A stretch of DNA of 63,117 nt, filler included, from Stramenopiles sp. TOSAG23-6 (GCA_900128565.1; 7 parts of 7 records of this genome joined end to end with filler, not necessarily neighbours in it), one strand, 5' to 3'. Numbered from the whole stretch's first letter, positions 8,894 through 63,117 are shown. Program-made: numbers and translations. The notes: generated from the letters alone by a model not told the origin.

Positions 8894-8965
8894 ATGGATT
8901 TTGGAAAAATATTTCAAAAAAAAAAACTTAAATTTGTTAGGTACAAAATTGCGTACGAAAAAAAA

Positions 8966-9065: not shown

Positions 9066-9220
9066 TTAAGGTAGTCGGGTAAATCTGAGCAGATTTGTCC
9101 ACGGGCGATATTCCAAAACTTTGATTTTTTTGTTAGGTACAAAATTTCGTACGAAAAAAATAAATTCGAAATTATTAGGGTTAGGGTTTAAAAGGAACAA
9201 AACCGGAACAAAAGCTTCAT

Positions 9221-9441: not shown

Positions 9442-9587
9442 CGTGCCCATGCAACCCTGGTTCAATTTGATGACGAGAAAAAGTTATACTTTCTACTAGA
9501 ATATACTATAGTATTATCGAATCAACAATGCAGAGTAGAAATAATTGTACATTTTGAGTGTATATTTTCTTGTAGTAGTACTACAGC

Positions 9588-10157: not shown

Positions 10158-10329
10158 AATATATGTTTGTTTGTATGTGTTTGTTTTGAGATACATTGAA
10201 AGTTGTAGAATAAAAAAATGTCAAAGGTTATTCAAATTTCGAATTTATTTTTTTTTGTACGAAATGTTGTACCTAACGAAAAAAATATCTGAAAATTTCG
10301 TAAAAATTTCATACTATTAATAAAAGAAT

Positions 10330-26568: not shown

Positions 26569-26720
26569 TATATTTCTAGTTATTGAATTGATTACATGAA
26601 GATGGAATTTTTATATACTCAAAAATAAAATGGAAAATAAATTCATAATTCAACTTTTTTTTATATCGAATTTTGTACCTAACAAAAAAAAATCATAATT
26701 TCATACTATTCCAACAAAGA

Positions 26721-27030
26721 TTACACTTTCTTTTTTACTCGCATTTTAATATCAACGTAAGAGCGAAGTACACTATCAAGTACTTTATCTGGGGCAGAAG
26801 CGGCGGCACCATAAACTGCTGCTGTACCTTCTACCTTACAATGTGGATGTATTGTTAAAAAAAAAACACACACACTCAAAAAATAATTGTTAGGTACAAA
26901 ATTTCGTATAAAAAAAAATACATTTGAAATTCATTATGAAAACGTACATTTTCACGTAAAAATTTCACACTACTCTGTATGTCAGAGGCCCATTGTCCAA
27001 GAACTCTCATATGTTGCTCACCCAGGCACA
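26721..27030 (-). CDS. C-terminal exons of a sphingosine-1-phosphate lyase-like PLP enzyme (partial)
   Basis: Spliced translation ...SDIQSSVKFLREN|PHCKVEGTAAVYGAAASAPDKVLDSVLRSYVD...* resembles the SPL C-terminus. GT...AT family intron. Confidence 0.5.
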
Positions 27031-27185
27031 ATGTATTTTGGAAAAATATTTCAAAAAAAAACTAAAATTTGTTAGGTACAAAATTNNNNNNNNNNNNNNN
27101 NNNNNNNNNNNNNNNNNNNNNNNNNNNNNTTAATTAATTAANNNNNNNNNNNNNNNNNNNNNNNNNNNNNNNNNNNNNNNNNNNN

Positions 27186-29756: not shown

Positions 29757-32700
29757 TTAAAAATATCTCTGTTTGCTATTTCGAATGGTTGGCATAATTA
29801 CATGACTACTTGTTGTATTTCGTGTTTTTGTTGTATTTCGTGTTTTTGTATGAATATTCATTGTTTCAATACTATTATTAATATCATTCATGAGTGCATC
29901 AAAATGATGAGCTTGAAAAAGTATGTGTCGTTTCTGTTGTGACATTATTTGAGTTTTTTTTTCTTGTGATTTTATTTTTTTTATTTTTGTTTTTTTTTCA
30001 TGTGATTTTATTTTTTTTATTTTTGTTTTTGTTTTTTTTTCTTGTGATTTGAGAATATATTCCAATAAATCATTACTACTCCATTTAGGATGTAATAATG
30101 TTCGTATACCATTAAGGTTAGGGTTAGGGTTAACAAAATGTGTATGTTTTGAACATAATAAAAGCATTTCTTTTACATTTTGTTTTGTATGAAAATTTTG
30201 TACTTGAGTATTTTTGTCTTTTCTATTTGTTTGTACACGAAATATTGAAACAATTGTACTAGTATTGTGTTCTATTGTATCACCAAGAAGATTTGTCAAG
30301 GCATGTATACCAGATATTTGTTTACCTAAAAATTTCATTTTAATCTGAAAAATTGAATCTATTACATTTTTTTGTACATTTTTTGAAATTTTTAAATTTT
30401 TTGAAATTTTTAAATTTTTTGAATTTTTAAAATTTTGATCATATTTATCAATTTGATCATATTTATCAATTTGATCATATTTATCGATTTGATCAGTTGT
30501 AGTTGATGGAATAGTTAAATATACAATATTTAAAATACCTTTTGTGCTTTGTTTTTTTNTATTGTTTTGTATTTTTTCTATATTTCTATTTTTTTGTATT
30601 TTTTCTATATTTCGTGTAGTAGTAGTAGTTGTTGTTCTAACACCGATGACTACAGAAACTTCCAAAATATTCCATTTTTTTTCTTTACACATTGTATGTA
30701 TTGTATCAATACCTTTAATTAGTACAATTTTAGCATCAAAAATATTTTTGACAGAGATCTCATTAGGGTTAGGGTTTTTTTCATTTTTTTCATTTTTTAG
30801 TATACTAGACAAAATTTCATGTATTTAAAAAAAATATTTCAAAATGTTTTTTTTTATTAGGTACAAAATTTCGTACGAAAAAAAAAATTCCAAGTTGAAG
30901 AAAAAAAGCATACATATACCATATTGTTGTATACAATTTGTATACTTATTGTAACAATATACTCAAAATCAAAATTATATGAATTTTGTGTTTTTTTTTG
31001 TATTTTTAATTTTTCAAATATATCAAAAAAAATTGTATAGAATATTTCAATATTTTGATTTTTTTGTGTTTTTTCAATTTTTTCAATTTGATTGTTTTGA
31101 TTGTTTTGATTGTTTTGATTGTCTCCCCATAATAAAAGTATACAAGATTTCTTACCTAAAACAAAAGCTTTTGTACATTTTTGAGTCATATTCAATACTT
31201 CATTTTGTGTATGTTCTTTCCCAAAAACACCATCAAAATCAAAATATTCTCTTTTTCCATATTTCGTGTTTTTTTCACCACCAAAATCAAAATATTCTCT
31301 TTTTCCATATTTCGTGTTTTTTTTCGTGTTTTTTTCAACATGTCTAATACTTAATATAATTTGTTTGTTTTGTACATTTGGAATCAATATAAATCCATTT
31401 TTTATATACGACATACAATGACTTGATTCGTCATCAACCCAGCAATACGAAAAAAAATGTTGATCACTTTTTTTTGTTTTTTCTTTTATATTTCGTGTTT
31501 TACAATTTTTATTTTTTTCTATTTTTTTAATTTTTTCTATTTTTTTATTTTTTTGTTGTAGTTTTTGAAATTTTATAATATCCATACCCAATTTTTGTAT
31601 TTCATGTTTTGTGAATTCTTGCATGTCTAAATAAGATTTTTTTATTGAATAAAATGATTTTTGTAATTCTAAAAATTTTTTTTTTACATTTTTGATGTTT
31701 TGATTTTTTTGATTTTTTTGATTTTTTTGATTTTTTTGATTGTTTTGTTTTTTTTGTTTTTTTTGGGTTTTCACATATATTTCGTGTTGTATTTGTTTGA
31801 TTGGTGAAAGTGTTTTTGAAGCTAAATATTCCATACATAAATTGTTTATTTTTGTATGTTTTGTATTTTTTGTATTTTTTGTATTTTTTGTATTTTTACT
31901 ATATTGAAGTAAAATCGATTTTAATTTCAGTTTTTCTTGTAGTAGTTGATAACTCAATTTCTCAATATTCTCAGAATCCATTATATTTTTCATACTTTTT
32001 ATACTGTTTATATCTTTTGGAATGTTTGTATAAGACGTCAATGGTACTAATTGTTTAGGGTTAGGGTTTGGAATAATGACGTCATTCTTTGTAGGTTGTA
32101 CACAATGTAAATGATTCAATGATGTTGATGGTACTAATTGTTTAGGGTTAGGAGGACAAGGACTACAAATAGGAGACATTGGTGTTAAAGATTGATGAAA
32201 ACTTTCATTCCACATTCGAGTTTCATCTTGGTACAAAATATCCGTACCAACATTTGTACTATTTTCTTCATTAGGGTTAGGGTTAGGGTCATTGTCATCA
32301 AATCCATTTTTTTCAGGACTTTGTGTGGGAATATTTATAGTCTGACAATTATTATTCATAGTAGGGTTAGCATCAGTCGAATTAATGACACTGATATTTG
32401 TGTCGAATTCGTTTCGCAATTTACTTTTTGTGTTGGTTCTTTTTGGATTATTGACATCAAATGTGATTTTTGGATGATTCACATCAAACGTGACACTGTT
32501 GACATCATTCGTTGTATAAATTGTATTATAATTTGTATTATAATTTGTACTAGAAGCTCCATAGTACTCTCTACCAAACTCATCAAAATCTCCATCAAAA
32601 TCCGTACCATGTAAACTCCTTGAGGGAGAATTTGTTGTCGCTTTCAATGTATCAAAATTTGTTGTCGCATTCAAAGTATCAAAATCCGTACCATGTAAAC

Positions 32701-33201: not shown

Positions 33202-34663
33202 GAGACATCATATCAGCTGACCAAGGAATTCAGAATCTCAGATGAACGAGCTCGAAATATACTACATAATCATATTATACCTGTTGTTAGGTTGATTAAT
33301 TCACTGACATTACATATTGATGAGATACAAGTACCTGAAAAAGAAGAGAATGTATGTTTTTTTTTTTTTGTATTAATTTTTTTTCGTACGAAATGTTGTA
33401 CCTAACGAATTTTATTTTTTTTTTTGAAATATTTTTCCAAAATACATGAATCGCCTAAACATTGGTATGAACGCATAAAACAGAAGAAAATATCAGTGCG
33501 CAGAACATTAAATCGTATTCAACAAGGAAATTATATATCTAATCTTGGTGTGTATGTTTTATTTATATTTTTTTTTGTATGATTTTATTTTTTATGGTAA
33601 ATTTTGTACCTAACATTTTTTTTTTTTTTTAAATATTTTTCCAAAATACATATTATCTTGTATGGGCGACGCATTCTTTGTTTGGATAAATGATACTGTA
33701 TACACATGGGGTAAAATCGTAGATGGTAAAATTCTTCATGGTTATTTTAATGAACCACTCAAACCTAAACTTGTTCAAGCAATACAAGGTAAAAAAGTAA
33801 AGCAAATATATGCTGGTGGTAATCACAATGTTGCATTATCGGATAATGGTGATGTATACACATGGGGATATGGACCTAATGGTCAACTTGGTCATGGTGA
33901 TGAAAATGATCAAGTCATACCTAAACTTGTTGAAGCATTATATTTCAAAGGTAAAGTAACAGAAATATCAGCTGGTGGTGGTCACACTGTTGCATTACTT
34001 GAAAATGGTGATGTACACACATGGGGAAATGGACGTTTATGTCAACTTGGTCATGGTGATGAAAATAATCAAAACAAACCTAAGCTTGTTCAAGAATTAC
34101 AAGGTAAAAAAGTAAAGCAAATATCAACTGGTAATTATTACACTGTTGTATTACTTGAAAATGGTGATGTATACACATGGGGACATGAAGAATATGGTAC
34201 ACTTGGTCATGGTGATGAAAATAATCAAAACAAACCTAAACTTGTTCAAGCAATACAAGGTAAAAAAGTAAAGCAAATATCAACTGGTAATTTTCACAAT
34301 GTTACATTATTGGATAATGGTGATGTATACACATGGGGATATGGAAATTTTGGTCAACTTGGTCATGGTGATGAAGAAAATCAAAACAAACCTAAACTTG
34401 TTCCAATTTTACTTGGAAAAGTAAAGCAAATATCAGCTGGTCGTTTTCACACTATTGCATTACTTGAAAATGGTGATGTACACACTTGGGGATTTGGAAG
34501 ATATGGTCAACTTGGTCATGGTGATCAACAAAATCAAAACAAACCTAAACTTGTTGAAGATGAAGCATTACAAGGTAAATATGTAGTAAGAGTAAAAGCG
34601 ACANCATGGAGTACTATTATTTATGGAAATGATGGTGATGTGATTGCAAAATATGGTAGATAA
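33202..34663 (+). CDS. RCC1-repeat protein, paralog of 23125-24474, with two family introns (5' end unclear)
   Basis: Six VYTWG/VHTWG...LGHGDE repeats. The upstream exon KHWYERI...QGNYISNLG is homologous to KQWYTRV...EGIYTSELG. Introns at 33352-33447 and 33552-33651. Confidence 0.8.
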
Positions 34664-34879: not shown

Positions 34880-36079
34880 GTCCTAATAACCCTAACCCTT
34901 GATCTGCTGCTAAAAGTCCATTAGTATCGGCACGTGCTCCTATATAGCTAGTGACGTCATACACATTTCGTGTCTCAGGAGTTGTATTTTCATTTCTTGT
35001 TTGAAAATATTTTTTTTAATTTTTTTGTTAGGTACAAAATTTCGTATGAAAATTTAAAATTTTCATTTCTTGTTTGAAAATATTTTTTTTAAATTTTTTT
35101 GTTAGGTACAAAATTTCGTATGAAAATTTAAAATTTTGTAATGATTAAAAATGTACATTGATTGTAGATCCTTCGGCACCTAATGCAAATGTATTGTAGA
35201 AAAATATTTCAAAAAAAAACTAAAAAAAATCGTTAGGTACAAAATTTCGTACGAAAAAAAATTCATACAAAAAAAAATTCATACAAAAAAAATCTAAAAA
35301 AAATCTTAAAAAAATCGTTAGGTACAAAATTTCGTACGAAAAAAAATTCATACAAAAAAATAAGAAAAACATACAAGACTCCCAGGATCCCGATCTTCAC
35401 AAATTTGAATAAGACATGATTTAAACTCTCTAAGCTCGACATGTATTGCGAAAAAATATTTTACATTTAAATTTTTTGTTTAGGTACACATTTTCATACT
35501 AAAAAAAATAAATTTTGAAAATTAAATTTTGAAAACGTACATTTTCCTCGTATAATCCCGCAACCAAATGAGGCTCAATATCTAATGAAGAGTCTGATGA
35601 AATTCTATCATTATTATCGAGTATATTTATCTCATATGATATTTTTTCATTTTCATGTTCTTCTTGGAACTTCAAAAATGGAGGAATGTTAAACATACTT
35701 TTTAAATGAACGTATGGATTATGAAAAAATATTTCAAAAAGAAGTTTTTGTTAGGTACAAAATTTCGTATGAAAACAAAATGTAGACAAAAAAAATGAAA
35801 TGAAAACGTACATAAATCTTTACTTGCTGATATTGAGATATGTTCTTCATGATCATTATTTATTTGTGTAGATGATACTGTTGAAGCTAGACGACAAATC
35901 ATTTCCTCGAATTGTGCAAATGTAATAGTAGACAAACAATCGCAGCTTTTTATCAATGATTCTACAAAAGATGGATTTTGTACAAATTCGACTGTGGCTT
36001 TGTGGAATGCAGATACATTCAATCTTTCTTGTTTTTTAACTGAAAAATGACAAAGTAAATATAATAAAGATTGTTGTAC
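34880..36079 (-). CDS. Fragmented multi-exon gene of unknown function with micro-exons between family introns
   Basis: ORF pieces 35702-36103 and 35499-35696 plus short exons, all bounded by the intron consensus. No family recognised. Confidence 0.3.
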
Positions 36080-36284
36080 ATGTATTTTGGAAAAATATTT
36101 CAAAAAAAAATCGTTAGGTACAAAATTTCGTNNNNNNNNNNNNNNNNNNNNNNNNNNNNNNNNNNNNNNNNNNNNTTAATTAATTAANNNNNNNNNNNNN
36201 NNNNNNNNNNNNNNNNNNNNNNNNNNNNNNNTACGAAATTTTGTACCTAACGATTTTTTTTTGAAATATTTTTCCAAAATACAT

Positions 36285-36723: not shown

Positions 36724-36999
36724 ACTACAGCACCAGGACCGAAATTGTATTATCATCTTACAATCATCCTTGTTGAAGATATACCAAACTTGAACTTTTC
36801 CTGTTAGGTACAAACTTTCGTACCAAAAAAAAATTAATCTGACAAAAGCTAGCTGTACAATAAAAGAATAGTAAAATATTTTTTATTACTAACGAACTTA
36901 TACATGTAATTTCTATAAATCGGTGGTATTGAGGTAATACCAGATGTTACCATTTCGTTGGTTTATATTCTTGTTCTAAGTAGAACTATAATGATTAAC

Positions 37000-37739: not shown

Positions 37740-40700
37740 ATGGCTCCCCCAAAACCACTGACAGTTACCGATGATGGTCACTGGAAGCCTCTTATAGAAG
37801 GCGAGCAACAGATTAAAGTGGTTTCTGAATATGCAAAGTCTAGTCGTGCTCGTTGCCGTTTGTGTAGTGAAAAAATCTTGAAGAACGAAGTTCGATTGGG
37901 ATTTCCAGTAAAATGGCGAGGTGGTGAATATGGTTGGATATCTTCATGGCGTCATCTTCTATGTTCCCGCCTGGAAGCGGAAGATCACGACAAAAATATT
38001 AATGATATTGTATGGGGTCTCCAAAACTTAAAAAAGCCGGATAGGGCATTAGTTAGAGCGGAGCTTGCAAAGAGAGGAACACCGGAACACTTAAAACCAT
38101 TAGATATTGAAGCTACGACTTTTAAAACTGCTCGTATTCCGAAACTGGTAGAACAACCGAAGGAAATTTTATTAAAGATGCTTCCTTATCAACTCGAGGG
38201 TTTTGGTTTTATGAAAGCTCAAGAAGCTAGCCTTTATCGAGGAGGTATTCTTGCAGATGAAATGGGTATGGGGAAAACATTACAAGCAATTGCTTTATTA
38301 GTTTCGGATGATAAAAATAGTACATGTGCAATTTCGGATAAAAGCAATTGTAAAGGTAAAGGAAGGGTTAGTAGGGTTAGGGTTGGCGTGTCTAAAAAGA
38401 AAAAACAAACTAATACAAAATGTGCTAAAAAGGAACAAAACGGACATACAGAAAGTTGTTGTGAAACCAATTCTGATCAACACTCCCAACTTGTGGAAGG
38501 TCCAACTCTCATTGTCGTACCCACATCAGCACTTCATCAATGGAAAAATGAAATTATTCGGTGTACAGCCGAAGATTCATTAACTGTGATGGTGTATTAC
38601 AAGAATCGTTCAAAAGTTACCATGGCGCAAATTTTATCCTATGATGTGATTATTACAACGTATCCTGTTTTAGAGAACGAATATCGAACCGTGGTTAATC
38701 GTGAGCGCGTGCCATGTGCGTATTGTAATAAGCTCTACTTGCCACGAAAATTGATTCTTCATAACAAATATTTCTGTGGTCCTAATGTATGTTTTATTTT
38801 TTTTCAAATTCGATTTTTTTTTATAGGAAATTTTGTACCAAAGTATTTTTTTTTTTTTTTTGAAATATTTTTCCAAAGTACATGCAAAACGATCTAAAAA
38901 ACAGTCCAAGACAGAGAGGAATGAAACTGCACAAAAAGCGACAGCTTCAGCAATGGTTACTTTACAAATTGCAAATTCAGATGATGCGGCTGAAGCTGTC
39001 GCAAATACTTGTAAAGCAAATAATGCGTTATCACGTTTTTCGTTTAAAAATGTAAATAGTACAAAAAACGTCGTTGACATGAAAACGACAAAAAATAAAC
39101 AAAAAACGAAAAGAAAACAGAAAAAAAAAGAAAAAAATAGTAAGCCGAAACGTGCATCCACTGCTTATAATTGTTTTGTACGAAGTCGTCGTGCTGCTAT
39201 GAAAATGAAGCATAAAAATGCATCATCAACGGAATTAATTCGGCTTCTAGCTGCTCAATGGAAATCAGCAACAAGTGAAGAAAAAGCTCCAGCTATAGAA
39301 GAGGCAAAACTAGACAAAATTCGGTATCAACAGGAATTAGACACATGGAAATCACGGCCTAAAAGTAGTAGTAGTAGTAGTGAATCAGAAAGTTCAAGTG
39401 AAACAGATGTATCCTTCTGGCCAAAAAACGTTTCTCAATCATTTCCAAAAAAGGTTTCTCAATCATTTCAGACAATTCAAAATCAAGGAATATCCACTTC
39501 AACTCAATCAAAGACAATTGGAAGATCGTGTAGAGGTCTTACTCCAAGTGGAATATATCGAGAACTAATGGTAGATGCAAATAGAACGCCTCTTCCTATG
39601 TACGTTTTATATGAATTTCTAATTTATTTTTTTTTTCATACGAAATTTCGTACCTAACAAATTTTAGTTTTTTTTTTGAAATATTTTTTCACAATACATG
39701 TACATGAAAGCTTCGGAACGTGCGAAAATTGTCAATAAGGAAAAGACATTATCAACCTCAAATACAGCAAATAATGATAATACTTTAGTAAAAGATAGAA
39801 AAAATACGAATTGTACTACCCAATATATGGATATGAATAGTTCAAGTACATCTCAAAGTATGAGTAATTGTGTTACATCAGTAACATCTACTCGTCGTCG
39901 TAGCGTGAGAGCCAGTGCTGTCAAGGCAAAACAACGTTGCTCGGATATTGTAGCACAAGAAAGTTGTTATGATGTAGATGGAAATGTGAATAAAACGGAC
40001 AATTCTGAAAAAGATGATAGTGTAAATACAAATGGAACTGTCGATAGTGGTGCTGAAGGTGACAGTGATACATATACAATTCCTGTATGTACGATTGATG
40101 CTGAAAAGATATTTGATAACGATAGTGAACTTAGTGATACTACATGCAATGAAACAAAAAAGCCAAACAAAAAACATGTTAAAAAGTCTAAAAACATAAA
40201 GTCTACAATATCAAAGACGTCAAAAGAAAAAGCAAAATTAAAAAAAGCAAAATCAAGAAAAGCAAAACGAAAGGCCTTGCAGTGTATTGAAGCTCTAGGT
40301 AATGAGATGAATAATCAAATTTCTACGAGTCAAAAAAGTTTATCAATAATGAGTAGTAAAAAAAGGAAATCATCAAGTAAAAGGAGTAGTAGTAATAACA
40401 ATAGTAAAAAAGGGAAATCATCAAGTAAAAATAATAGTAAAAAAAGGAAATCATCAAGTAATAATAATAGTAATGAAAAAAAAAAAAAATGTTCAAAAAA
40501 CGTTTTTGTAGATTCGACGACATCATCTTCTGAATATAGTAGTTCCAGTAGTTCTGGGGAAGAATCGAATGATACATTTGTAGAATATCCAAAATATGCA
40601 GAAGAAGGATTGATAATGACTGATGAAGGTGTACGTTTTCAAAATTAATTTTAAAATTAATTTTAAAATTTGTTTTATTTTTCATACGAAATTTTGTACC

Positions 40701-43700
40701 TAACGATGTTTTTACGAAAAACAAAATATTTTTCACAATACTTGTAGATCTCTGTTACTCCATATTACATTGTATAAATTGGCGTAGAATAATTTTAGAT
40801 GAAGCTCATAAAATTAAAGGAAGAACGAATAATACTGCAAAATCAGCCTATGCTTTAACAAGTGTAAATCGTTGGTGTTCGTTTCCATTATGAATTTCAT
40901 TTTTTTTTTCTCTCATACGAAATTTTGTACCTAACAATGAAATTGAATGTAAAATATTTTTCACATTTCGTGTCTTACTGGAACTCCTATTCAAAATCGA
41001 GTGGGTGAATTGTATTCTCTTGTTCGTTTTTTGCGTATAGATAAATTTGCGTATTATTATTGTGGTGCGAAAGGGTGCGATTGTAAGTCTCTTCATTGGT
41101 CGTTTGGTAGAATGTATCTTTTTATTTTTTTTTCAATGTTTTTTCAAATTTTTTTTTATAGTAAATTTTGTACCTAACAAATTTAAGTTTTTTTTTTGAA
41201 ATATTTTTCCACAATACATGCAACGTAAGTGTAATCAATGTAATCATCCTCCAATGAAGCATTATAGTTATTTTAATAAGTATATCATCAATCCTGTCAA
41301 ACGGTATGGATATATTGGGGATGGTAAAAAGGGAATGCTTATGCTTCAAAATGAACTGTTGGCCAATGTAATGTAGGTTTTCATTTCAAATTTATTTATT
41401 TATTCGTACCAAAATTTGTACCTAACAAAAAAATCAAATTTGACAGATTTTTTCACAATACATGCTTCGAAGAACAAAAAAAGAGAAAGCATCTGATTTA
41501 AAACTTCCTCCTCTCATTATTAACGTTGAAATGCTGGAATTTGTACGTTTCCATTCCATTCCTAATTTATATTTTTTTATATGAAATTTTGTACCTAATG
41601 ATTTTTTTACAAAAACAATATTTTTTTTACACTACTTGATGAAGAAGAACAAGATTTTTATGAGTGTATTTACAAGCATACTCGATCTCGTTTTGATACA
41701 TATGTTGATAAAGGAACTCTTCTTCATAATTATGCCCATATATTTGAACTGCTCTCTAGATTAAGGCAATGTACAGATCATGTATGTTTTACTTTTTTTC
41801 AAATTCGATTTTTTTTTTATAGTAAATTTTGTACCTAACAAGTTTTTGTTTTTTTGAAATATTTTTCCAAAATGCATCCTTACCTAGTTGTTCATGGAAA
41901 ATTCAAAGGTAAATCAGCACCAATGCCATCTCGTAGTAGTAAAGGTAGTGTATGTTTTATTTTTTTCAATTTTTTATCTAAATGTTTTTTTTTATAAAAA
42001 TTTTGTACCTAACAAATTTTAGTTTTTTTTTTTTGAAATGTTTTTTCACAATATATGGTGCAGGCCGTGAAGTATGTGGAATTTGTTGTAAAGACATTGA
42101 AACTACGAAAGACACTGCCATTGCATCATGCAAGCATGCGTTTCATCGCTCGTGTATTCGAACTTATATTGGTGAGATGGAAGAATTAAATACTGAAAAT
42201 TTTGTCTCTCAGAATCGAAAAAAAAAAAAAAAAAGTAACAACAACACGAAAAACACGAAAAAAGTGGGTAAAAAACGCTCATTAAAAATGATGTCGTCTG
42301 ATTGTGAAGAAATCGAACCCGATGTTTTTAACGAAGGGATCGTTGCTGGAGGTAGTGGTAATGTCAAGAAAATATGTCCTGTATGTTTCCAGGAGCTTAC
42401 GATTTCTTTTCTTGAGTCAGGTGGTGCTGATGATGATGAAATAAAACATATACCAAAACATCATGTACGTTTTCAAAATTTAATTTCAAATTTTTTTTTT
42501 TTTTGGTAAAAAAATTTTGTACCTAACAAATTTTGAATAAAAAAAATATTTTTCCAAAATACATGTGGATAAAATATGTGACATAAGTAAAGCTCCCGAA
42601 AGTACAAAAGCGCCATGTGCCATTTGCATGGATCGACCGCGCAATGCTCTGCTTTTACAATGCGGTCATTGTTTTACATGTGTTACTTGTGCGAAGAAAC
42701 TTCCAAATAAAGCATGTCCAATTTGCACGTTTTCATTATGAATTTCAAATTTTTTTTTTTTTTTGGTTTCATACGAAATTTTGTACCTAACAAACTTCGA
42801 ATTTAATTTTTTTTACAATACATGTCGTGCGAAGATTGTGAAAATTATTCGTGTACAACTTGGATCAAATGGTGTCACAAGTTTTGAAGAAAATCGAATT
42901 CAGGATAATACTTATAATGATTTGAATCATATGTCAATTATGCAAAAAGTTGCCACGAAAGAATTTTCGTCATCTACAAAGGTCGATGCGCTTCTTGCGG
43001 CAGCAAATCGACTTAAAAAGAATGAAAAAGCGATAGTCTTTAGTCAATACTCCTCTATGATTGATATTATTGAATGGGCCTTGAAAAGAGACGGTCAGCG
43101 TGTTGTAAAACTTATTGGAAATATGACTGCAATACAAAGACACAACGTCCTTTCACAGTTCAAAACTGATCCATCAATTAATATTATTATTTTAAGTTTA
43201 CGTGCAGGTGGAGAGGGTTTAAACCTTCAAGAAGCTTCTCATGTACGTGTTCAGTATTCATTTTTACCAATTTCGAATTTATTTTTTTTCGTACGAAATT
43301 TTGTACCTAACATTCTTTTTTTTTTTTGAAATATTTTTCATGTACGTGTTCAGTATTCATTTTTACCAATTTCGATTTTTTTTTACTTTGAAAATTTTTT
43401 TTACATATTCGTTTTCATTTTTCATTTCATTTTTGTTTTTCTAAACAAAATTTTATATATCTAATGAGTTTCGAATTTGATATATTTTTTTATGCTCTAT
43501 GTGTTTGTATTGGAACCTTGGTGGAATCCCCAAGTGGAGTGGCAAGCTATACAGAGAGCTCATGTATGTTTTATTTTTTTTCAAATTTTTTTTTTTATAG
43601 TAAATTTTGTACCTAACAAATTTAAGTTTTTTTTTTTTTAATATTTTTCCAAAACACATAGGATTGGTCAGACTAAGAAAGTCATAGCTACTCGATTTAT

Positions 43701-43842
43701 TGTGAAAAATACGATTGAAGAGCGGATGCTGCAACTGCAAGAAAAGAAGCAATTGGTATTTGAAGGTTGTATTGATGCATCGACTGCAGCTCTTGGGCAA
43801 CTCACTGAAGAAGATTTAAAATTTTTATTTCACAACGGATGA
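37740..43842 (+). CDS. RAD16: RAD16/RAD5-family SNF2 helicase with PARP-type Zn finger, HMG box and two RING fingers; 14 exons
   Basis: [83 protein letters not shown]. Introns at 38787-38883, 39600-39699, 40631-40743, 40877-40971, 41114-41219, 41373-41463, 41543-41637, 41782-41877, 41950-42056, 42465-42564, 42725-42823, 43243-43500, 43564-43659. Confidence 0.88.
40877..40971 (+). mobile_element. Family intron, GT...GT with GT direct repeat
   Basis: tgGT|GTTCGTTTCC...CACATTTC GT|gtctt restores helicase motif III RWCLTGTP. No AG is available. Confidence 0.8.
41543..41637 (+). mobile_element. Family intron, GT...TT with TT direct repeat
   Basis: gaatTT|GTACGTTT...ACACTAC TT|gatgaa restores [12 protein letters not shown]. 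Confidence 0.8.
42725..42823 (+). mobile_element. Family intron, GC...AT
   Basis: ccaattt|GCACGTTTT...CAATAC AT|gtcgt restores the RING motif CPICR. Confidence 0.78.
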
Positions 43843-43936
43843 AGACTTCATGTTGACAAAAAAGAAGTATTAAATTACATATATTATTAATTATACTATT
43901 TTATCTGTGTGTAAAAAATTACCATCGATATCCAAT

Positions 43937-45081
43937 TTAATGAAGATTTCTAATTTCCCATCCCAAAATACCATTATCATCGCCCATCTTCAATTCTTGA
44001 TGATGAAATTGTTCTAATGCTAGACGTTGCGAAATAGTAATACTAGTAATACCTCGATCATGAGCTGCACGATAAAGATTTTCTTCAACATCCACTGAAA
44101 CTGCACTAGTACATTCATCTAATACTGCAAATTGAGGCGCATGGAAAAATAAACGAGCTACACCAAGTCGTTGTTGCTCACCTAAAGAAAGAACATGTAT
44201 TTTGGAAAAATATTTCAAAAAAAAAAAAAAATTGTTAGGTACAAAATTTACTATAAAAAAAATAAATTCGAAATTCGAAATTGAAAAAAAAAAAAAAAAC
44301 ATACATCTTCCCATATTGCTACAGCATCCCAGCCGGAGATATTTCCAATATTTTCTGTGACTGCAAACCTATCTACTAAATAGAAAATTCCTACTAAATG
44401 TAGTAATTTTTCAAGTTTTTTTTTTAATTCTTTTGTCTGATTTTTCTTCACAAAACGTTTAGGATATGTTATTTGGTCTAATAGGGTACCCGTCACAGAA
44501 TACGGTTTCTGTGATACAAGAAATACATTTTGATGTGTGACAATTCCTTCATTATTACAAGGTCTCTCAATTATACCCTTTGGAATATTCCACATACCAC
44601 CCAAAACACGAAATAATGAGGATTTTCCAGACCCATTTGGTCCAGTGACAATCAGTGGTTTCCCTGCTGATACCGTGAAATTTAATGATTTAGCACAACA
44701 TGTACCACCCGGAGCAACAATATCTACATTTTTGAAAGAAATATAGTCACCTTTTGAACGGGTTAAAATGCCACCAGTGAAATACCCAGAATATCTACAT
44801 ATTGTTGAATTGTTTAACTCAATTTCATCGTTATCACTAGATTGTATACACTGAACATGAAATTTATCTACATTTGATAGATCTTCTAATACGTACATCA
44901 AATCAGTAACATTTTCCAATACTCCAAAAAATTTACCTATTAATTCCTGAAGTTCGAATACATCACCAAATGATTTGAAAGATCTCAATACTGTTTGTTG
45001 AATATATTCACCAACCCTAGGTATCTGTCCAATTTTATCGACCCGAAATTTACTTTTTTCGGAAGTAAGCATTTGAGTGTA
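43937..45081 (-). CDS. Peroxisomal ABCD-family ABC transporter, C-terminal part
   Basis: GPNGSGKSSLFRVLGGMW, QKPY, WED|VLSLGEQQRL, LDECTSAVSVDVE. GT...AT intron at 44195-44304. Confidence 0.9.
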
Positions 45082-45321
45082 ATGTATTTTGGAAAAATAT
45101 TTCAAAAAAAAAAAAACTAAAATTTGTTAGGTACANNNNNNNNNNNNNNNNNNNNNNNNNNNNNNNNNNNNNNNNNNNNTTAATTAATTAANNNNNNNNN
45201 NNNNNNNNNNNNNNNNNNNNNNNNNNNNNNNNNNNTTTTTTTTTTTTTTTTTGGTTTTCGTTCGAAATTTTTTTCCTAACATTTTTTTTTTTTTTTTTTG
45301 AAATATTTTTTCATCATACAT

Positions 45322-45964
45322 GAATGGGATAAAGAAGATGTTGAAGAAGATGTTAAAATATTAAATGAGCAATTACAGAGAAATTATCGTGTGATGTCTT
45401 CTTTTGAACGTTATAAAATGGAGCTACAGACTGGAAATTTAGTGAAAGGCCCGGCCCATGTATGTTTTATGTTTTTTCAAATTCGAAGTTTTTTTTTCGT
45501 ACGAAATTTTGTACCTAACGAAAAACATTTTGAAATATTTTTTCACAATACATACTGAAGATTTTTGGAATGAAAATGCATTCAGATTTGAAATGAATGA
45601 GTTTAAATTAATTAAGCAATTAGTTACACTACTTGAAGCATCACAATCCTCAACTGAGACTTTAAGTTTAGCTTGTTATGATATAGGAGAATTTGCAAGA
45701 TTTTATGAAAGTGGAAAGTATGTTTTATTTTTTTTTCAATTTTGAATTTATTTTTTTTTTTCGTACGAAATTTTGTACCTAACAAATTTTTTTAGATTTT
45801 TTTTGAAATATTTTCCAAAGTACAAGGTTGTTTTACGAATGCTTAATGCAAAAGAAAAAATTATGGCCTTGATGTCACATCCGGATGAAGATGTCGCTAA
45901 ACATGCGCTACAGGCAGCTGCTAAATTACTGATATCCAATTGGGAGCATATTGGAGTATCTTGA
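45322..45964 (+). CDS. ATP6V1H: V-type ATPase subunit H, C-terminal part
   Basis: SSFERY..EL..G.L..GPAH|TEDFWNENA, LACYDIGEFAR...GK|VV...IMALMSHPDEDVAKHAL. Introns at 45460-45553 and 45718-45825. Confidence 0.9.
45718..45825 (+). mobile_element. Family intron, GT...AA with AA direct repeat
   Basis: ggaAA|GTATG...AAAGTAC AA|ggtt. Using the AG one base further on would frameshift V-ATPase H into a TGA stop. Confidence 0.8.
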
Positions 45965-46700
45965 ATAACCCTAACCCTAATTCTTTTTTGGATGTCAAAA
46001 AAGTTACTTAGGGTTAGGGTTCGAAATTCGAACAATATTTCAAAAATAATAATAATTTTTGTTAGGTACAACTTTTTCATAGTTAAAAAAAAATGGCAAC
46101 ATAATAATGATAATCACTGATTATATATTGTTGCCTTTTTTCGTACAAAACTTTGTAGTGGAGGAGGCATCGATGGAAAAAAATATGAAAGGTGATTTTT
46201 ATTTTTTAATACATTTGGCTTTTTAATTTTTGTATTTTTTGTATTTTTTGTATTTTTTGTATTTTTGGTTTTTTTTGTATTTTTTGTTTCTTTTTGTATT
46301 TTTTGTATTTTTGGGTTTTTTTGTATTTTTGGTTTTTTTTGTATTTTTTGTTTTTTTTGTGTTTCTGAATTTTCTGAATTTTCATGGTAATCTCACTTGA
46401 GAAGAAACCAAAAAAACAACACAAGAATAAAGCTTTTCATAGATCTGTATTAATTCTTTCATTTTGAAATTTTTTAACACGAAATCGGTCAAATTGAAAT
46501 ATTTTATTTTTATGCTGTCATAAATTGGATGTGTCAATATTTAATAGCTATTATTACTATATAATCGTCTGGTTACAAGGTCATACATTATATTTTACGT
46601 AGCTAATACAAAGTCCGAATACACATTCGATATTATTGCGCAGCGAATTAAAAATTTAATGGGCACAGCCTATTTGATTACGAAATAGCTTTCTTCAATA

Positions 46701-49587: not shown

Positions 49588-49911
49588 TTTGCATTTAGCT
49601 CAACACAAAAATGTGTTTCTTCTGAAGTTTTGATGATTCGTTTTTTTTGTTTTTTTTTTTTCTGATTGATTCACCGTTCGTTACCCGGTACGATAAGAGG
49701 AAGCGCGAATCATGATTTTCAGGAATTTATTTTATTACGTAGGCCAACATATTCAAAATTCGTTAGGTACGAAATTTGGTACAAAATATGATGTCGGAAT
49801 GTGACGCGTTCTGGGAACGATCGCCGACTCAAGGGATTCGGGGATACCCAACCCCCGAATGATTCAAGTTTTCGAAAGTTTTAAAGTTTTCCATGATTCA
49901 TAGAAAGGAAC

Positions 49912-51560: not shown

Positions 51561-52709
51561 TCACTTTTTTGAAAGATAACCTGAAACGCCTATTGCAAAA
51601 GCTTGAAAAAGAGAAACTGGATGCTTCACATATACATCAACCAAGCCATCATCTATTGTAGCACCAATGACAAGAACAGTTTCTCCTGTGTTTGAAACAA
51701 GACAAATATTCTTCTTATTCTTTTGAATCTGTGGATATGCTGAAACACTAGGATACATACCTGCAAAAACACACATTGCATTTGATTTTCCATTTATCCA
51801 ATGTGTTTTGTTCTGTAAGTACGCTGTATAAAGTCTATCTTTTTCAAATAAAGCATTTTTTTGTCTCCAATTCGCAGTTAATGTATTTACCTTTTGTGTT
51901 TCATCTATTTGTATTTCTGATGCATGTGGTAATAGAGCAACAAGTCGGTGTTGACCTGCAATTCGAGAAACGAAAGAATCTAAATTGTTCTGATTTGATC
52001 CATATACTAAACATCCCATTTCTCGACGCATTCCTTTCATTCCCAGTTGTTTTGCATCTCGTGGAGCTAAGCCCCAATCATAAATCATATGAGGTGCATT
52101 TGCTACTTTACACCGAACTTTACCTAAATAATCAACACTGTCTCTTCGACAGCGAGTTAAAGGATCACCAGCAATGATTACATTTATACCTCGGCTCATC
52201 TTATGTATTTTGGAAAAATATTTCAAAAAAATTATAAAAAATTTGTTAGGTACAAAATTTCGTACAAAAACAAAATTCGATTTTTTTGTTAAAAAAAAAA
52301 ATAAAACATACATTTCTTTTTGCAGACATTAAAAAAGTTTCAAATGCATAAGACTTTGTTTGTGCAAGTTGAAATGTAAAACGCTTACCATGATCAAAAA
52401 CTTTCAAAGTGCAGTGTATGTATTTTAGAAAAATATTTCAAAAAAAAAAAAAAATAATTGTTAGGTACAAAATGTCGTACGAAAAAAACAATCGATTTTT
52501 TTGTTTAAAAAAAAAATAAAACATACATTATACCATCCGATTTTAAGCGAGGTTGTGTTAAAAACGTTTTTCTTTGTGATGGTGACATTGTTTGTACTCT
52601 AGAAAAATATTTTGTCTTCAGTAAACCTGGATAACAACTTACAGAACCATCATACAAATCTTGTTCAGTTGGAAAATCATTTTTCTTTTTTGAATGTAAA
52701 ACTATCTTG

Positions 52710-54238: not shown

Positions 54239-57221
54239 CAGCTGCTTATCCAAATGGTACATTCGATATACGATATGAAGATGGTGACTTCGAGGCCGGT
54301 ATGCAATCACAATATATTCGTGAGCGCGAAGCGCCAAATGCAACTCAAACTGAACCACAACCACTACAAAATTCTCAGCCACAACCACAGCCACAACAAC
54401 AACAAAACGAAAAACAACCATCACAACAAAAATCTCAACCTACTCCTTTTAGTCAATTTCATGTTGGTCAGATAATAAAGGCAATGTATGGTAATGGTAA
54501 GGATGGAAACGAATGGTATCCAGGTGTTATTGAAGCTGCTTATCCAAATGGTACATTTGATGTACGATACGAAGATGGTGATTTTGAGGCTGGTATGCAA
54601 TCACAGTATATTTGTGAACGTGAAGATGAATCCACTAGCTATCAAGATGACACCTCAAATGATGCCGCTGTAATCGACAAAGCTTTGAAGCTGGTAGAAA
54701 ATGGAAATGTTGCAGAAATTGCCCGACTTGCAGAGGAAGCCGAAGTACAGAGGGCATTAGAATCTGCAAAGGCACTAGAGCAAGAAAGACTTGCTGAAAA
54801 AGCTAAACTTCAAAAAATGATAGACGATGAAAAGAGATTATTAGAAAAAGCAAAAACCGAAAGATTATTAGAAGAAAATAATGCATCGGAAGCTCAGGAA
54901 AACGCGGTTGTGGGAAAACAAATATTGGCAATGTATGGGAGTGGCAAGGATGGAAATGAGTGGTTTCCAGGTGTTATTGCAGCAGCTTATCCAGATGGAA
55001 CATTTGATATAAGATATGACGATGGTGACTTCGAGGCCCGAATGCAATCACAACACATTCGTGAGCGGGAAGTAACTCCCACAGTTCAACCCCAACCACA
55101 GCATCAGGCTCAACTACAAAAACAACCTCAACAACAACAACAATCACAACAACAAAAGTCCCAACCTCTTCCTTCTAGTCAGTTTACAATTGGTCAACAG
55201 ATCACGGCAATGTATGGAAGCGGTACAAATGGAAATGAATGGTATCCAGGTGTTATTACAGCTAATTATCCAAATGGTACATTTGATATAAGATATGATG
55301 ATGGCGATCAAGAGAGTAGAATGCAAGCACAATATATTCGTAAACGTGATGGCGAAGAAACTCTTCAATTTTCTACCGCCGCTATGGTTTCAAAAGCCGT
55401 AGTAAAGACCTCAGCGTCAATTGCCGATGCTAAGGCTAGACAATTATTGAAACTTCGTGCTGCTGAGGAAGAACAAGCAATGCTGGCTTTACAGCGCGCA
55501 AAAGCCGATGCTGAAGAACAAGCAAAGCGATCTAGAGAATTGATTGAAGCTATTGCTGCTCAGGAAGCGGTAGCATCCAAACGGCTCGCCGAAGCACAGG
55601 TGGAGGCGGCTAAAGCCCATGAGCAAGCTCAAGCCGAAGCAAAGGCGCGAGCAGAAGCAGAAGCAAAGGTAGCAGCAGAAGCTCGAAAAGAACAATTACG
55701 ATTAGAAGCCGAAGCAAGGGCTAGAGCAAAAGCAGAGCAGGCTAAGATCGAAGCTGCAGCAAAAGCCAAGGAAATTGCAAAGTTCAAAGCTGAGTTACGA
55801 AGACGCGAGTTAGAAAAGCAACGTAGAATGTTTGAGATTCAGCAAGCCAAGGCTGAAGCAGAGGCAAAAGCTCAAGAAATGAAGGCTGAACTTGAAGCAG
55901 TTGCCGCACAAGAAGCAAGAGCTGCAAAGGAACTGGCTGAGATGCAGAAAAAGGCAGCAGTGGAGCATGCTCGAGTTGCTGCTGAAGCTAAAGCGAAACT
56001 TGAAGCTGAAGTGAAAGCTGTTCAAGACGCTGTAGCCGCAAGAATAAAGGCGGAAGCCGAGGCCCGAGCTCGCGCCGAAGCAAAAGCAAAGGCTGATGCA
56101 GAAGCAGAGGTCAAGAGAGTACAGGCAGAAACACAGGCAAGGATCGAAGCTTTATATAAAGCCCAAGAAGAAGCAATGAAACAGGAAGAAGATCGCGCTA
56201 TGTCTGCATATAAAGAAACAAAATCTGCAATGGAAAAACAAGCAGCAGATGCAAGAGCTACTTTAGAAGCACTCAATAAGCAGGAAACACAATATGCTGA
56301 AGAGTTTGCAAAGTCACAGGCTGCAGCAAAACAAGCACACAAGAAGGCAGAATTAGAAGCAAAAGCACGAGCAGAAGCCGAAGCAAAAGCAGGAGATGTA
56401 TCCGGCAAAGCTGCAGAAGCAGCAAACGGCGCTTCCATTGTAGCGTTAAAGGTTGCATCTACTGCTGCAGAAATTGTTGAAGAGTTGGAGAAAAGAATGG
56501 ACGCTAAAGCAAGAGCTAATGCAGAAGCGGCTGAGGCTGCTGCAAAGGCAGAGGCAACAGCTGCAGAAAAGGTAATGGCAGACGCATTAGCTGCAGCTCA
56601 AAAAGCAAAGGCACTTCAGGAACATGCGGCTAAAATTCGTTTGCAAGCTTCGACTTTGGTTCAGGATGGCAGAAATAAAGTTTCTGAACATGAAAAAAAA
56701 TCATTATCTTTGAAAGTAGTTACATCAGCTCTAATGCCTTTACTGCCTCTATATTCAAAAGTTGTTGCTCGGTATAAATCAGGAGATTCATGTATGTTTT
56801 ATTTTTTTTCAAATTCGATTTTTTTTTCGTACGAAAGTTTGTACCCTAACGATTTTGTTTTGAAATATTTTTCCAAAATACATGGTACTCTGGACAAGTG
56901 ACAGCAACAAATAGCGATGGATCTTACGATATCTTGTATGATGATGGCGATGTAGAGAAAAATGTACCATCGTCTTTTGTCAAAAATCAAATTTTACCAC
57001 AGACATCACAAGTAAGAAATAATTCTACAAGTGGATTTGGTGATACCCCCAACCCTAGCCAAATTGGCCAAAAGATCATGGCAATGTATGGAAGTGGTAC
57101 AAATGGAAATGAATGGTATCCAGGCATCATTACAGCTGCTTATCCAGATGGTACATTTGATGTAAAATATGATGATGGTGATCAAGAAAGTAGAATGCAA
57201 GCACAGTATATAAGAATGTAA
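54239..57221 (+). CDS. Protein with multiple Tudor/Agenet-like repeats and long Ala/Glu coiled coil (5' partial)
   Basis: Six copies of (G)NEWYPGVIxAAYPxGTFDxRYDDGD-like units. GT...AT intron at 56792-56883 restores SGDS|WYSGQV. Confidence 0.75.
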
Positions 57222-58304: not shown

Positions 58305-60240
58305 ATGAGATTTGTTACGCCGTACATTCTCTCATTTTTGGTATTTGTTCAGTCAAAACATACAACTGTTTTCTCTTCTTGGTTTCATAAAGAGAATTGG
58401 ACAAGTCAAAAACGTTTGCAAAGTCTTGCTCAGAGAGGTTTACCCGTTTTGATATCTGGCGTCCCACCAGGTATGTGGTCGGTTCAACAATGGACACCTG
58501 AATGGCTTGCAGAACAATCCAACGTGCTACTACCAGTAAAGGTAAAGCGGAAAGGAAAGACAAATAGCTCCGAAAAGATTAGTAGTCGTTTCCCACCAGG
58601 TTGTTGTCTTCCTGAGAAAATGCTCTTATCTGAATTTATGGATCGCGCGGAAAGAAGCAGATACAACATATCTCATGCAAGTGGCCAAGACTATATCGAG
58701 GATTTATACTTCTCCGGCCCGGTTCATTCTATAGGGTTAAATAGTGACAAATCAAAAAATAGTGACAAATCAAAAAATAATATTGACTTTCGTACATCTC
58801 TAACGATTAAAGAAGTGAATGTTATTGAATCTCAATACTGTCAAGATCAAGGAATTCAATCGGATAGTAGTATGACCGTATGGTTAGCTACTGAAGGTGT
58901 TACAACTCCATGTCATATTGACGATATGCACAATTTTATTCTAGGGGTATCTGGAGAGAAGGCAGTCACAATATTCCCCCCTTCGGCGTGGCGATCTCTT
59001 CAACTATATCCAAAAGATAATTTATTACATCGAAATGTTCGTCGTAGTATAAATATAGTAAAAAACAAAAGTTTTTATAATAGTAGTGGTACATTTCCAC
59101 ACGGTGGTATGGGGTTAGGGTTAACCCTGTCGGATGAAAAATCTGTTACATTTAAGATTACTCCAAATGACATATTATACATACCCCCATTATGGTTCCA
59201 TCAAATTACATCTTTATCATCTGTTGCATTATCAACAAATGTGTGGTCACCATCTGGTGTGATGCATTTGTTACACAATTTGTGGTATGGCGATATTGCG
59301 ATAGATGTATCCAATTTATTACCCTCGGAAAGTTTTCCTCTCGTAGCGTTATACATTTCAGAAGTGACCTCTCAGATACTTCAAATATTTAGTACTACAA
59401 GTAGTATATGCACTACAAGAGAAATGCTAGGTACGAAATTTGGTACGGATAGTAATCAAATGTGTACAACTGGATTTAATCATGACCAAAGAAATGAGAA
59501 ATATCGAATATTTCATAAAGAAAAATACGAAATAAATGATTTTCTCAATGATTTTATCAAATTTCGACATACAGATAGTCGTGATATTCACTCTACTACA
59601 AGCACTACTATGATGGATTCGATAAATGATTCAACAAACATTCATTCAACAGAGGAGTATCGACTGCTAAATGCATGTACGTTTTCAATTTCAATTTCGA
59701 ATTTATTTTTTTTCGTACGAAATTTTGTACGTAACGATTTTTTTTACAAAAAAATATTTTTCACAAGACATACAGACATGAATAGAAAATGAATCCCCTT
59801 CATTCTTTGATGAATATATCTCTGAAAAAAAACAAAAGGATATCGATAACCCTGACCCTAATGACGAAAATATTCTTTTTAAGACTTGGTGTAATAGATT
59901 AAATGTACAAAAAAGTGAAAGATTTATCACTGGAAAAAAATCAATGCTTAGAGCTCTTCAAAATACAATGAAAAAAATAAGAAAAGACTTGAGACAAATA
60001 GGGAGTAAAAATTCTGGTTATAAAGTAAACAATATTCATTTACGAGGCGTATGTATGTTTTTTTTTTGATTTCGATTTGTTTTTTTTATAAAAATTTTGT
60101 ACCTAACGTTTTTTTTTCTAAAAATATTTTTACAAAATACATTTGAAATAGTTGTTGGAAATTACATTGAAGATGTAAGTACGCAATTTGTAGGACGATC
60201 GAGGATGAATTCATTTTTTCAAAATTGTATCTTTTTGTGA
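58305..60240 (+). CDS. JmjC/cupin-8 domain 2-oxoglutarate dioxygenase
   Basis: VWLATEGVTTPCHIDDMHNF..VSGEK..IFPP and ILYIPPLWFHQI. Two family introns; the first junction, at ~59677, could not be put in frame. Confidence 0.8.
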
Positions 60241-63091: not shown

Positions 63092-63117
63092 ATGTATTTT
63101 GGAAAAATATTTCAAAA

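Follow-up and report, generated by a model that had tools for sequence, protein, structure and literature searches.

The DNA analysed here raises the question of how introns that resemble one another came to lie at unrelated sites, and how they can be removed when most of them end in AT rather than AG. The stretch, referred to below as the window, comprises 63,117 bases from Stramenopiles sp. TOSAG23-6 (GCA_900128565.1). Its genes are interrupted by introns that begin with GT and whose last two bases usually repeat the two nucleotides preceding the intron. The original prediction, made for positions 40877–45825, held these introns to be an introner or miniature inverted-repeat transposable element (MITE) family bordered by target-site duplications. 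The introns are one repeated family with subfamilies, and the sequence likeness extends over the whole length of copies at non-homologous sites; the MITE label did not hold. As to their origin, the sequence appears to be read best as a family of introner-like elements whose insertion duplicated 2 bp of the target site, and we regard this as probable, if by no wide measure.

Composition of the intron family

The family was catalogued with a profile made from 30 clear copies, and an nhmmer scan of the window recovered the full-length copies. There are 43 of these on seven contigs, the two ends of each having been located by alignment to the family (Table 1). The rows of the catalogue rest on a reading-frame test of each junction and on the flanks as read; those of a RAD16-like gene rest also on colinearity with orthologues. 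Copies whose 3' end could not be placed were left out of the counts (14387(-), 21070(+) and its assembly duplicate 22059(-), 35156(-) and 10534(-)), and a further AT/AT copy with a diverged core, 60937(-), was found late and stands outside the 43. Seven partial copies at contig ends have no 5' flank.

Including its last two bases, the intron has a median length of 105 nt (range 77–258), typical copies measuring ∼90–120 nt. All 43 copies have G at position +1 and 41 have T at position +2 (one of the others starts with GC and one with GA), the consensus of the 5' site being GTAYGTTTT. The 5' site is followed by a variable T-rich stretch, a T-run, the sequence ..ACGAAAT or ..AGTAAAT, a core and a second T-run, and a conserved 3' box of ∼20 nt terminates in ..ATAC. 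The 12-nt core, TTTGTACCTAAC, is branch-site-like and, with at most one mismatch, has 56 matches in the window against 0.44 expected; its branch-like A lies at a median distance of 42.5 nt (range 33–190) from the 3' end. The family thus displays two features of U2-type introns, namely the GT (GY) 5' end with a GTAYGT consensus and a TACTAAC-like branch core, TACCTAAC. It lacks the third, an AG at the 3' end: the last two bases are AT in 36 copies, AG in two, TT in two, GT in two and AA in one.

Some copies depart from this plan. Two tandem core copies are found in 3257–3475, 3810–3944, 35189–35374 and 35024–35156, and the doubled-core introns display an internal tandem duplication of ∼75–85 nt rather than a nested insertion with a flank repeat of its own. 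In the compound intron at 43243–43500 a truncated family copy is followed, at 43340, by a repeat of the first 35 nt and of the AT that precedes them; behind this repeat comes a second half that has diverged and whose core is degenerate. Such an arrangement could stem from a duplication within the intron, from recombination of two copies or from faulty assembly. The copy at 4329 starts with GAATG instead of GTATG, and removing it in the usual register still restores the frame; the changed start could be a sequencing error, the mark of a dead intron or a sign of tolerance at the 5' end.

Table 1. Positions of the family introns, of partial and core-only copies, and of other features of the window. 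Flanks are the two nucleotides before GT and the last two of the intron.
Feature	Position	Strand	Flanks and remarks
Family intron	2961–3074	+	AT/AT; frame restored by removal of element plus 2 nt
Family intron, doubled core, internal CCCTAA motif	3257–3475	+	TA/AT, mismatch
Family intron, two cores, GT-AG member in same register	3810–3944	+	TC/AG
Family intron	4051–4157	+	AT/AT (..ATAT|AT)
Family intron, 5' GA in place of GT	4329–4449	+	AT/AT
Family intron	7288–7392	-	AT/AT
Family intron	7966–8071	-	AT/AT
Family intron	8224–8329	-	AT/AT
Family intron, diverged	8453–8611	-	GT/AT, mismatch
Family intron	11240–11378	-	AT/AT
Family intron, second GT-AG member	13023–13135	-	AT/AG
Family intron, internal deletion	13278–13354	-	AT/AT
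Family intron	13796–13918	-	AT/AT
Family intron	14730–14859	-	GT/GT, non-AT matching pair
Family intron	15549–15644	-	AT/AT (..ATCC|AT)
Family intron	26847–26947	-	AT/AT
Family intron	30819–30913	-	AT/AT
Family intron	33352–33447	+	AT/AT
Family intron	33552–33651	+	GT/AT, mismatch
Family intron, tandem-duplicated core	35189–35374	-	TT/AT, mismatch; frame test tied
Family intron	35441–35540	-	AT/AT; frame ambiguous (59 codons with element alone removed, 30 with 2 nt more)
Family intron	35714–35811	-	AT/AT (..ATCC|AT)
RAD16-like intron 1, core with 2-nt deletion	38787–38883	+	AT/AT
RAD16-like intron 2	39600–39699	+	AT/AT
RAD16-like intron 3	40631–40743	+	GT/TT; orthologues retain G-V
RAD16-like intron 4	40877–40971	+	GT/GT, non-AT matching pair; junction RW-C-LTGTP
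RAD16-like intron 5, 5' GTATC	41114–41219	+	AT/AT
RAD16-like intron 6	41373–41463	+	AT/AT
RAD16-like intron 7	41543–41637	+	TT/TT, non-AT matching pair
RAD16-like intron 8	41782–41877	+	AT/AT; junction DH|PYLVVHG
RAD16-like intron 9	41950–42056	+	GT/AT, mismatch
RAD16-like intron 10	42465–42564	+	AT/AT
RAD16-like intron 11, 5' GC	42725–42823	+	TT/AT, mismatch, synonymous; junction CPI-C-RAK
RAD16-like intron 12, compound (5' 35 nt repeated inside)	43243–43500	+	AT/AT; junction SH|VFVLEPW
RAD16-like intron 13	43564–43659	+	AT/AT; junction RAH|RIGQT
ABC-transporter gene intron	44195–44304	-	AT/AT
V-ATPase subunit H intron	45460–45553	+	AT/AT
V-ATPase subunit H intron	45718–45825	+	AA/AA, non-AT matching pair; junction SGK|VVLR, no gap versus P0134
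Family intron, Tub-domain gene	52203–52311	-	AT/AT
Family intron	52418–52526	-	AT/AT; closest pair with 52203–52311, 89% identity
Family intron, core reads TACCCTAAC	56792–56883	+	AT/AT
Family intron near end of JmjC/cupin gene	59677–59771	+	AT/AT; no reading frame across junction, strand undecided
Family intron	60053–60142	+	AT/AT; strand test 32 versus 34 codons
Contig-end partial copy, 3' half	45084–45135	-	one of seven
Contig-end partial copy	8897–8965		one of seven
Contig-end partial copy	27033–27085		one of seven
Contig-end partial copy	36082–36131		one of seven
Contig-end partial copy	36232–36282		one of seven
Contig-end partial copy	45254–45319		one of seven
Contig-end partial copy	63094–63116		one of seven
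Core-only fragment (T-run, ..ACGAAAT, core TTTGTACCTAAC, A-run)	10245–10280	+	88 nt past stop of open reading frame 9579–10157
Core-only fragment	26654–26686	+	
Core-only fragment	36801–36837	-	
Core-only fragment	35024–35126	-	
Core-only fragment	46028–46094	-	
Core-only fragment	9110–9163	-	
Core-only fragment	49751–49788	-	
N44-TTAATTAATTAA-N44 linker	45136–45235		inside 40877–45825
14-mer AACCCTAACCCTAA, example sites	3278, 3652, 3679, 9175, 10683, 30118, 30763, 32055, 32271, 45967, 46008, 51247, 52971, 59848		

Flanking repeat and splice register

The two nucleotides upstream of the intron are identical to its last two in 34 of the 43 copies, compared with a mean of 26.4 when the downstream dinucleotides were shuffled 200,000 times (P=2e-5). 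This is the comparison that the original prediction had proposed, run here on the copies of the window. Identical pairs other than AT served as a control for AT bias; four were found (GT/GT at 14859 and 40877, TT/TT at 41543, AA/AA at 45718) against 0.44 expected (P=1.1e-4). The individual sites that had first suggested the repeat read exactly as described, namely GT|GTTCG..TTTC|GT at 40877, TT|GTACG..CTAC|TT at 41543 and AA|GTATG..GTAC|AA at 45718, with AT|GT..AC|AT at most others, and the proposal that the repeat varies with the site while preferring AT is borne out. When eight other registers were compared, each gave 1–4 identities per 43 copies. Within 40877–45825 the flanks are identical in 11 of the 13 full copies, the exceptions being 41950 (GT/AT) and 42725 (TT/AT). 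AT makes up 9.9% of the dinucleotides outside introns. Since the flank repeat exceeds AT bias and varies with the site, it carries the locus-specific signature of a target-site duplication, and we infer that it is a 2-bp duplication of this kind. Passages of PMC9860276 point out that duplication and insertion preference are hard to separate from matches across introns alone; the locus-specific matches found here answer that problem, if weakly.

The register of splicing was assessed by removing each element alone, with one further nucleotide or with two, and comparing the longest open frame across the junction. Removal of the element plus 2 nt gave the best frame in 37 copies and a tie in three (35374, 41543 and 41950), and was not the best in the remaining three (35540, 43564 and 59677). 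In the RAD16-like gene (37740–43844), which carries 13 family introns, removing all of them in the +2 register yields 1,550 codons with no internal stop. The spliced product is colinear with P0003 (39% identity), P0005 and P0002 (61%), and its junctions sit without gaps in conserved motifs such as RAHRIGQT; this colinearity settles the register at 43564 and 41543. With its AT/AT and AA/AA introns taken out, the tail of V-ATPase subunit H likewise aligns to P0134 without a gap over 144 columns (74% identity). Frames and orthologues thus agree with the earlier proposal that the downstream copy leaves together with the element, whether it reads AT, TT, AA or GT, and that the mRNA is left without a scar. 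The broader claim that insertion could occur at any site in this way was too strong, as 36/43 copies have AT as their 3' dinucleotide and in 24/43 the exon resumes with G.

An AG that is not used lies between the core and the 3' end in 20 of 42 copies, and splicing at it would break the frame in 17 of those 20. Judging from motifs, frames and orthologues, the introns appear to be of the spliceosomal type, cut before GT and 2 nt past the ..ATAC box, with internal AGs passed over. The place of the 3' cut would then depend on the 3' box or on distance, and not on the dinucleotide itself.

A register 2 nt further upstream would instead turn the family into AT-AC introns (ATGTAYG...ATAC), removed by a U12-type or AT-AC-tolerant spliceosome, with the downstream AT belonging to the exon. 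Where the flanks are identical, as in 34/43 copies, both registers yield the same mRNA, so that the register is not readable from it and these copies do not discriminate between the two. The core also matches the consensus TCCTTAAC at 6 of 8 positions. Moreover, U12-type introns tolerate varied 3' ends, GT-AT among them, as reported in parts of 10.1101/2020.10.12.336362. Several observations speak against AT-AC boundaries. The U12 5' motif [AG]TATCCTT is found in 0/43 copies and GTATC in 1/43, and the branch-like A is separated from the 3' end by a median of 42.5 nt containing T-runs, not by the 10–15 nt without a pyrimidine tract that characterise U12 introns. The upstream, exonic dinucleotide is less conserved than the downstream one (AT in 31/43 versus 36/43), and two copies, 3810 and 13135, terminate in AG in the same GT..NN register. 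At 40631 (GT/TT) the orthologues retain G-V, which places the cut directly before GT, so that the upstream GT stays and the downstream TT leaves. We hold the AT-AC reading to be very improbable.

Descent, insertion and constraint

Linkage between the two ends points to shared ancestry of the copies. Position 4 of the 5' end (T/C) is linked to positions -9 (C/T) and -6 of the 3' end, ∼90 nt away (Fisher p=8.5e-6 and 6.3e-5, respectively), the main haplotypes being GTATGTTTTA with ..CCAAAATAC (17 copies) and GTACGTTTTC with ..TCACAATAC (7–10 copies); the linked variants restore no pairing between the intron ends. When the variable 5' halves were compared between contigs, an exact 8-mer with at least two G/C was common to 27 pairs of copies, compared with 5.5 ± 2.6 in shuffled sequences (maximum 18 of 500). 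Of 39 copies, 29 are most similar to a copy on a different contig.

The family would most likely have arisen and be spliced as follows. The element would supply the yeast-like 5' site GTAYGTTTT and a branch site, and the spliceosome would cut directly before GT; motifs, frames and orthologues suggest that the second cut is placed by the 3' box, 2 nt past ..ATAC, at any bases with AT strongly preferred. Flank statistics and subfamily structure suggest spread by DNA insertion at a 2-nt staggered cut, preferably at AT, that duplicates the target. The downstream target copy would thereby become the last two bases of the intron, and since splicing takes the element together with this copy, the mRNA would be restored exactly.

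Short inverted ends had been noticed and are real, measuring only 3–4 nt (GTAT..ATAC where the copy starts as GTATG, GTA..TAC where it starts as GTACG), and RNAalifold predicted no pairs and no hairpin for 30 copies. MITEs, by comparison, have terminal inverted repeats of ∼10 bp or more and copies in either orientation, outside genes as well as inside, and the MITE label is not supported. The introner half of the original label fared better, the copies forming a repeated family with subfamilies. All full copies had been taken to lie in sense orientation. Once the intron is taken out, reading through the junction gives the longer frame on the intron's own strand in 39/43 copies, and 41114 and 43564 are in sense by orthologue colinearity, so that 41/43 are in sense; 59677 and 60053 gave no clear strand. 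A Helitron-like insertion between A and T was rejected, as the terminal bases would need to follow the host flank; so was a TA duplication one step further in, which needs an 8-bp palindromic target at every site, and a Replitron-like insertion, for which there is no terminal direct repeat.

A number of observations weigh against insertion with target-site duplication. The flanks do not match in nine copies (3257, 3810, 8611, 13135, 33552, 35374, 40631, 41950 and 42725); seven of these are one base from a matching pair, and 3257 (TA/AT) and 3810 (TC/AG) differ at both positions. The locus-specific part of the flank signal depends on four non-AT pairs. Position -3 is A or C in 27/43 copies, and this preference, together with the G that often follows the intron, resembles the usual (A/C)AG|GT..AG|G with T replacing G. 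Median pairwise identity is 69% and the maximum 89%, so the copies are not young; conserved signal makes up roughly half of every copy, so that a large part of their likeness may be due to constraint. Every intron recognisable in the window belongs to the family, which would also fit a lineage-wide change of splice signals. The inverted ends are, as said, very short. In the 63-kb window the profile scan found no full-length copy that is intergenic, clearly antisense or long: all 43 are inside genes, and outside coding sequence there are only core fragments. Long relatives with a transposase, for which the original prediction had proposed a search, did not turn up either: the 20 open reading frames (ORFs) of at least 213 aa that were scanned in the window carry commonplace domains or none at all, with neither a transposase nor a reverse transcriptase among them. 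A two-part pattern of the family, which has 30 matching places in the window, matched 25 loci in metagenome contigs, each once and none family-like on inspection; it gave two single matches in viral contigs and seven in contigs of prokaryote metagenome-assembled genomes, none inspected and all of the same single-match kind, so that the family was found in none of the three collections.

Core-only fragments add a further point of this sort. The core with its T-run occurs alone on the sense strand, 0–170 nt after stop codons, for instance at 26654 after an ORF ending at 26568, at 36837 after an intronless histone H2B gene and at 35126/35052. The fragments may be 3'-end signals or decayed copies in 3' untranslated regions. 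As the core recurs alone after stop codons, the family likeness may partly reflect functional constraint and not recent copying. Two of the fragments have a further motif, AATTTCATACTATT, in common downstream.

Several of these observations are what one would expect of vertically inherited introns with long lineage-specific splice signals, in which ..AT| is preferred at exon and intron ends as ..AG| is elsewhere and likeness results from constraint and homogenisation. About half of each intron would be signal and the rest T-rich filler, the exon context would be (A/C)AT|GT..AT|G, the lone core after stop codons would point to function, and neither a uniform intron set nor the lack of intergenic full-length copies and of transposases in the scanned ORFs would be surprising. 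Such introns would leave unexplained the flanks GT/GT (found twice), TT/TT and AA/AA, the association between variants at the two ends across 90 nt, and the G/C-containing words common to different contigs in the variable half. We consider this explanation unlikely.

A broader proposal is put forward tentatively, as possible and no more than that. The spliceosome of this lineage would no longer read AG at the 3' site but would take the second cut from the 3' box, at a distance of ∼42 nt from the branch site and 2 nt beyond ..ATAC. This would have allowed an element without inverted repeats to insert scarlessly into coding sequence with a 2-bp duplication, until essentially the whole intron set had been replaced or created as GT-AT, and the core may also have been taken over as an mRNA 3'-end signal.

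Introns might also have spread through RNA, if excised copies reverse-spliced after ..AT into transcripts that were then copied to DNA and recombined into the genome. The sense orientation of 41/43 copies (wherever it can be judged), the confinement of full-length copies to genes, and the lack of real inverted ends and of a transposase would all suit this route, which PMC9860276, in the passages concerned, gives for ascomycete introners that have neither duplications nor inverted ends. A reverse-spliced intron, however, brings its own last two bases and makes no duplication, so that downstream bases should not follow upstream ones at non-AT sites, and no reverse transcriptase domain was detected in the 20 scanned ORFs. 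We therefore regard this route as distinctly improbable.

The assembly deserves separate consideration. The window consists of seven pieces, from 8,965 down to 8,879 bases, split by six N44-TTAATTAATTAA-N44 linkers; the linkers and the descending sizes mark it as a chain of size-sorted contigs, not a single locus. Positions 40877–45825 cross the linker at 45136–45235 and so join two unrelated contigs. Seven contig ends stop inside family introns, which evidently break the assembly as repeats; six of these partial copies (all except 63094–63116) have AT directly after them, and those at 36082–36131 and 36232–36282 share the same 3' half. The contig at 18128–27085 consists of two perfect inverted copies that meet at ∼21565, so that each strand shows the same ORFs; it is probably an amplification or assembly chimera. 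This duplication, and the shortness of contigs broken inside repeats, could be held to favour an artefact of single-cell amplification or assembly as the source of the family itself. Such an origin is barely credible: 43 copies at different sites each restore the reading frame, and the junctions match independent orthologues. An index of sequencing runs also gave 13 runs, six of them RNA, that share words with the contig, seawater DNA and RNA runs of later years among them, a weak point that was not used as evidence.

The window is AT-rich, with a G+C content of 21–40%; tRNA genes were not detected in it, and nothing reached the gathering score for an Rfam family. A telomere-like 14-mer, AACCCTAACCCTAA, has 24 sites in the window (at most one mismatch) against 0.01 expected. 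Many of its copies are within ORFs, encoding NPNP in sense and LGLG in antisense; one inverted pair stands directly past a stop codon (45967/46008), and others adjoin intron-core fragments (9175 and 3278).

Relation to known introns and to the host

Introners of Micromonas, Chrysochromulina and other organisms bring a single splice site of their own, the second being supplied by the duplication, which gives scarless splicing, and some have no inverted ends, as set out in parts of PMC9860276 and PMC11282704; in some of the families described in the former, it is the 5' site that comes with the element and the 3' site that is co-opted from the duplication, and inverted ends are lacking. The family described here is like the introners of these accounts in that one sequence occurs at many unrelated sites, is enriched in genes and is bordered by a short duplication, one copy of which is spliced out so that the mRNA is unchanged; in lacking inverted ends it is like the family of Chrysochromulina in particular. 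However, the published families have duplications of 3–9 bp, GY-AG boundaries and a co-opted AG, whereas here the duplication would be 2 bp and the ends are AT (36/43), TT, AA or GT, with AG in 2/43.

The introner elements of Amoebophrya (PMC7789003) are, according to sections of that paper, repeated non-canonical introns with short direct repeats overlapping their boundaries, and canonical gene models miss them, which makes them similar to the present family. They have an inverted-repeat hairpin of 8–20 nt joining the ends, direct repeats of 3–5 nt and no consensus end dinucleotides, and U1 snRNA was not found; in contrast, the present introns have a 5' GT in 41/43 copies, a yeast-like branch motif and no hairpin. 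The MITE introns of Fritillaria borealis (Henriet 2019), as summarised in part of PMC11282704, are transposon-derived and non-GT-AG, are removed by a tolerant spliceosome and have AG-AT among their common boundary pairs. Their odd end is mainly the 5' one (AG-AC, AG-AT) and they have inverted ends, whereas the present introns start canonically and are unusual at the 3' end alone. Euglenid nonconventional introns, again from parts of PMC11282704, share non-canonical junctions and duplication-like border repeats; they have no pyrimidine tract and pair positions +4..+6 with -8..-6, whereas the present family has long T-runs and does not show this pairing.

For the U12 introns of Physarum polycephalum an origin from an element duplicating 2 bp (TA) has been proposed, with splicing that restores the frame, and GT-AT is a minor boundary among them (both from portions of 10.1101/2020.10.12.336362). 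These introns resemble ours in that respect; they have a U12 5' motif and a branch site 10–12 nt from the 3' end, neither of which is present here. Among DNA transposons, ISL2EU elements (PHIS) make a 2-bp 5'-AT-3' target-site duplication, as described in part of PMC4482050. According to the same source they have inverted ends of 6–259 bp starting with GG and the target A|AT|T, and were found only in animals in that survey. Here the ends are GT..AC, symmetrical over 3–4 nt. AT stands upstream in 31/43 copies and downstream in 36/43, but the bases outside it are not enriched for A and T (A at -3 in 15/43, T at +3 in 4/43). What looks distinct is that a canonical 5' end and a canonical branch site occur together with a 2-bp duplication and a GT-AT majority, inverted repeats being absent, in what appears to be the whole intron set.

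A majority GT-AT boundary was not found described in the portions of the literature covered on MAST-3/Nanomonadea introns, stramenopile introners and protist GT-AT introns. No report of the family was found in the main texts of the MAST genome papers and introner surveys (PMC5778133, PMC12614181, PMC8163842, PMC12130899 and PMC9860276), and the words 'MAST' and 'stramenopile' are absent from the main text of introner surveys including PMC9860276.

One exon of the RAD16-like gene is 99% identical to the EukProt protein P0001, whose source name begins with GSMAST32, a MAST-3 stramenopile label. From the source name of this one protein we take the host to be a MAST-3-like marine stramenopile. Protein searches for transcript-derived proteins of the organism itself returned P0001 as the only near-identical match, the remaining matches being relatives at ≤84% identity. 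P0001 is the public gene model of the RAD16-like gene; it translates intron sequence and skips conserved exons, and has therefore missed the family introns. Among the relatives, P0002 and P0134 are colinear without interruptions and may derive from DNA or RNA, and P0015–P0021 suggest an intron near, but not at, the position of 40877.

Parts of PMC5778133 report 2,694–3,289 genes and 'pseudogenised' dynein genes for single-cell assemblies of the lineage; unrecognised GT-AT introns could lie behind both the low gene counts and the apparent pseudogenes. Introns would here be spreading in a form that ordinary gene finders miss, P0001 reading straight through them. If the introner-like reading is true, transposon-like intron spread would be coupled to a changed splice rule in a new lineage, the heterotrophic stramenopiles on the Bigyra side, which would provide a natural test of how the second step of splicing chooses its site without AG.

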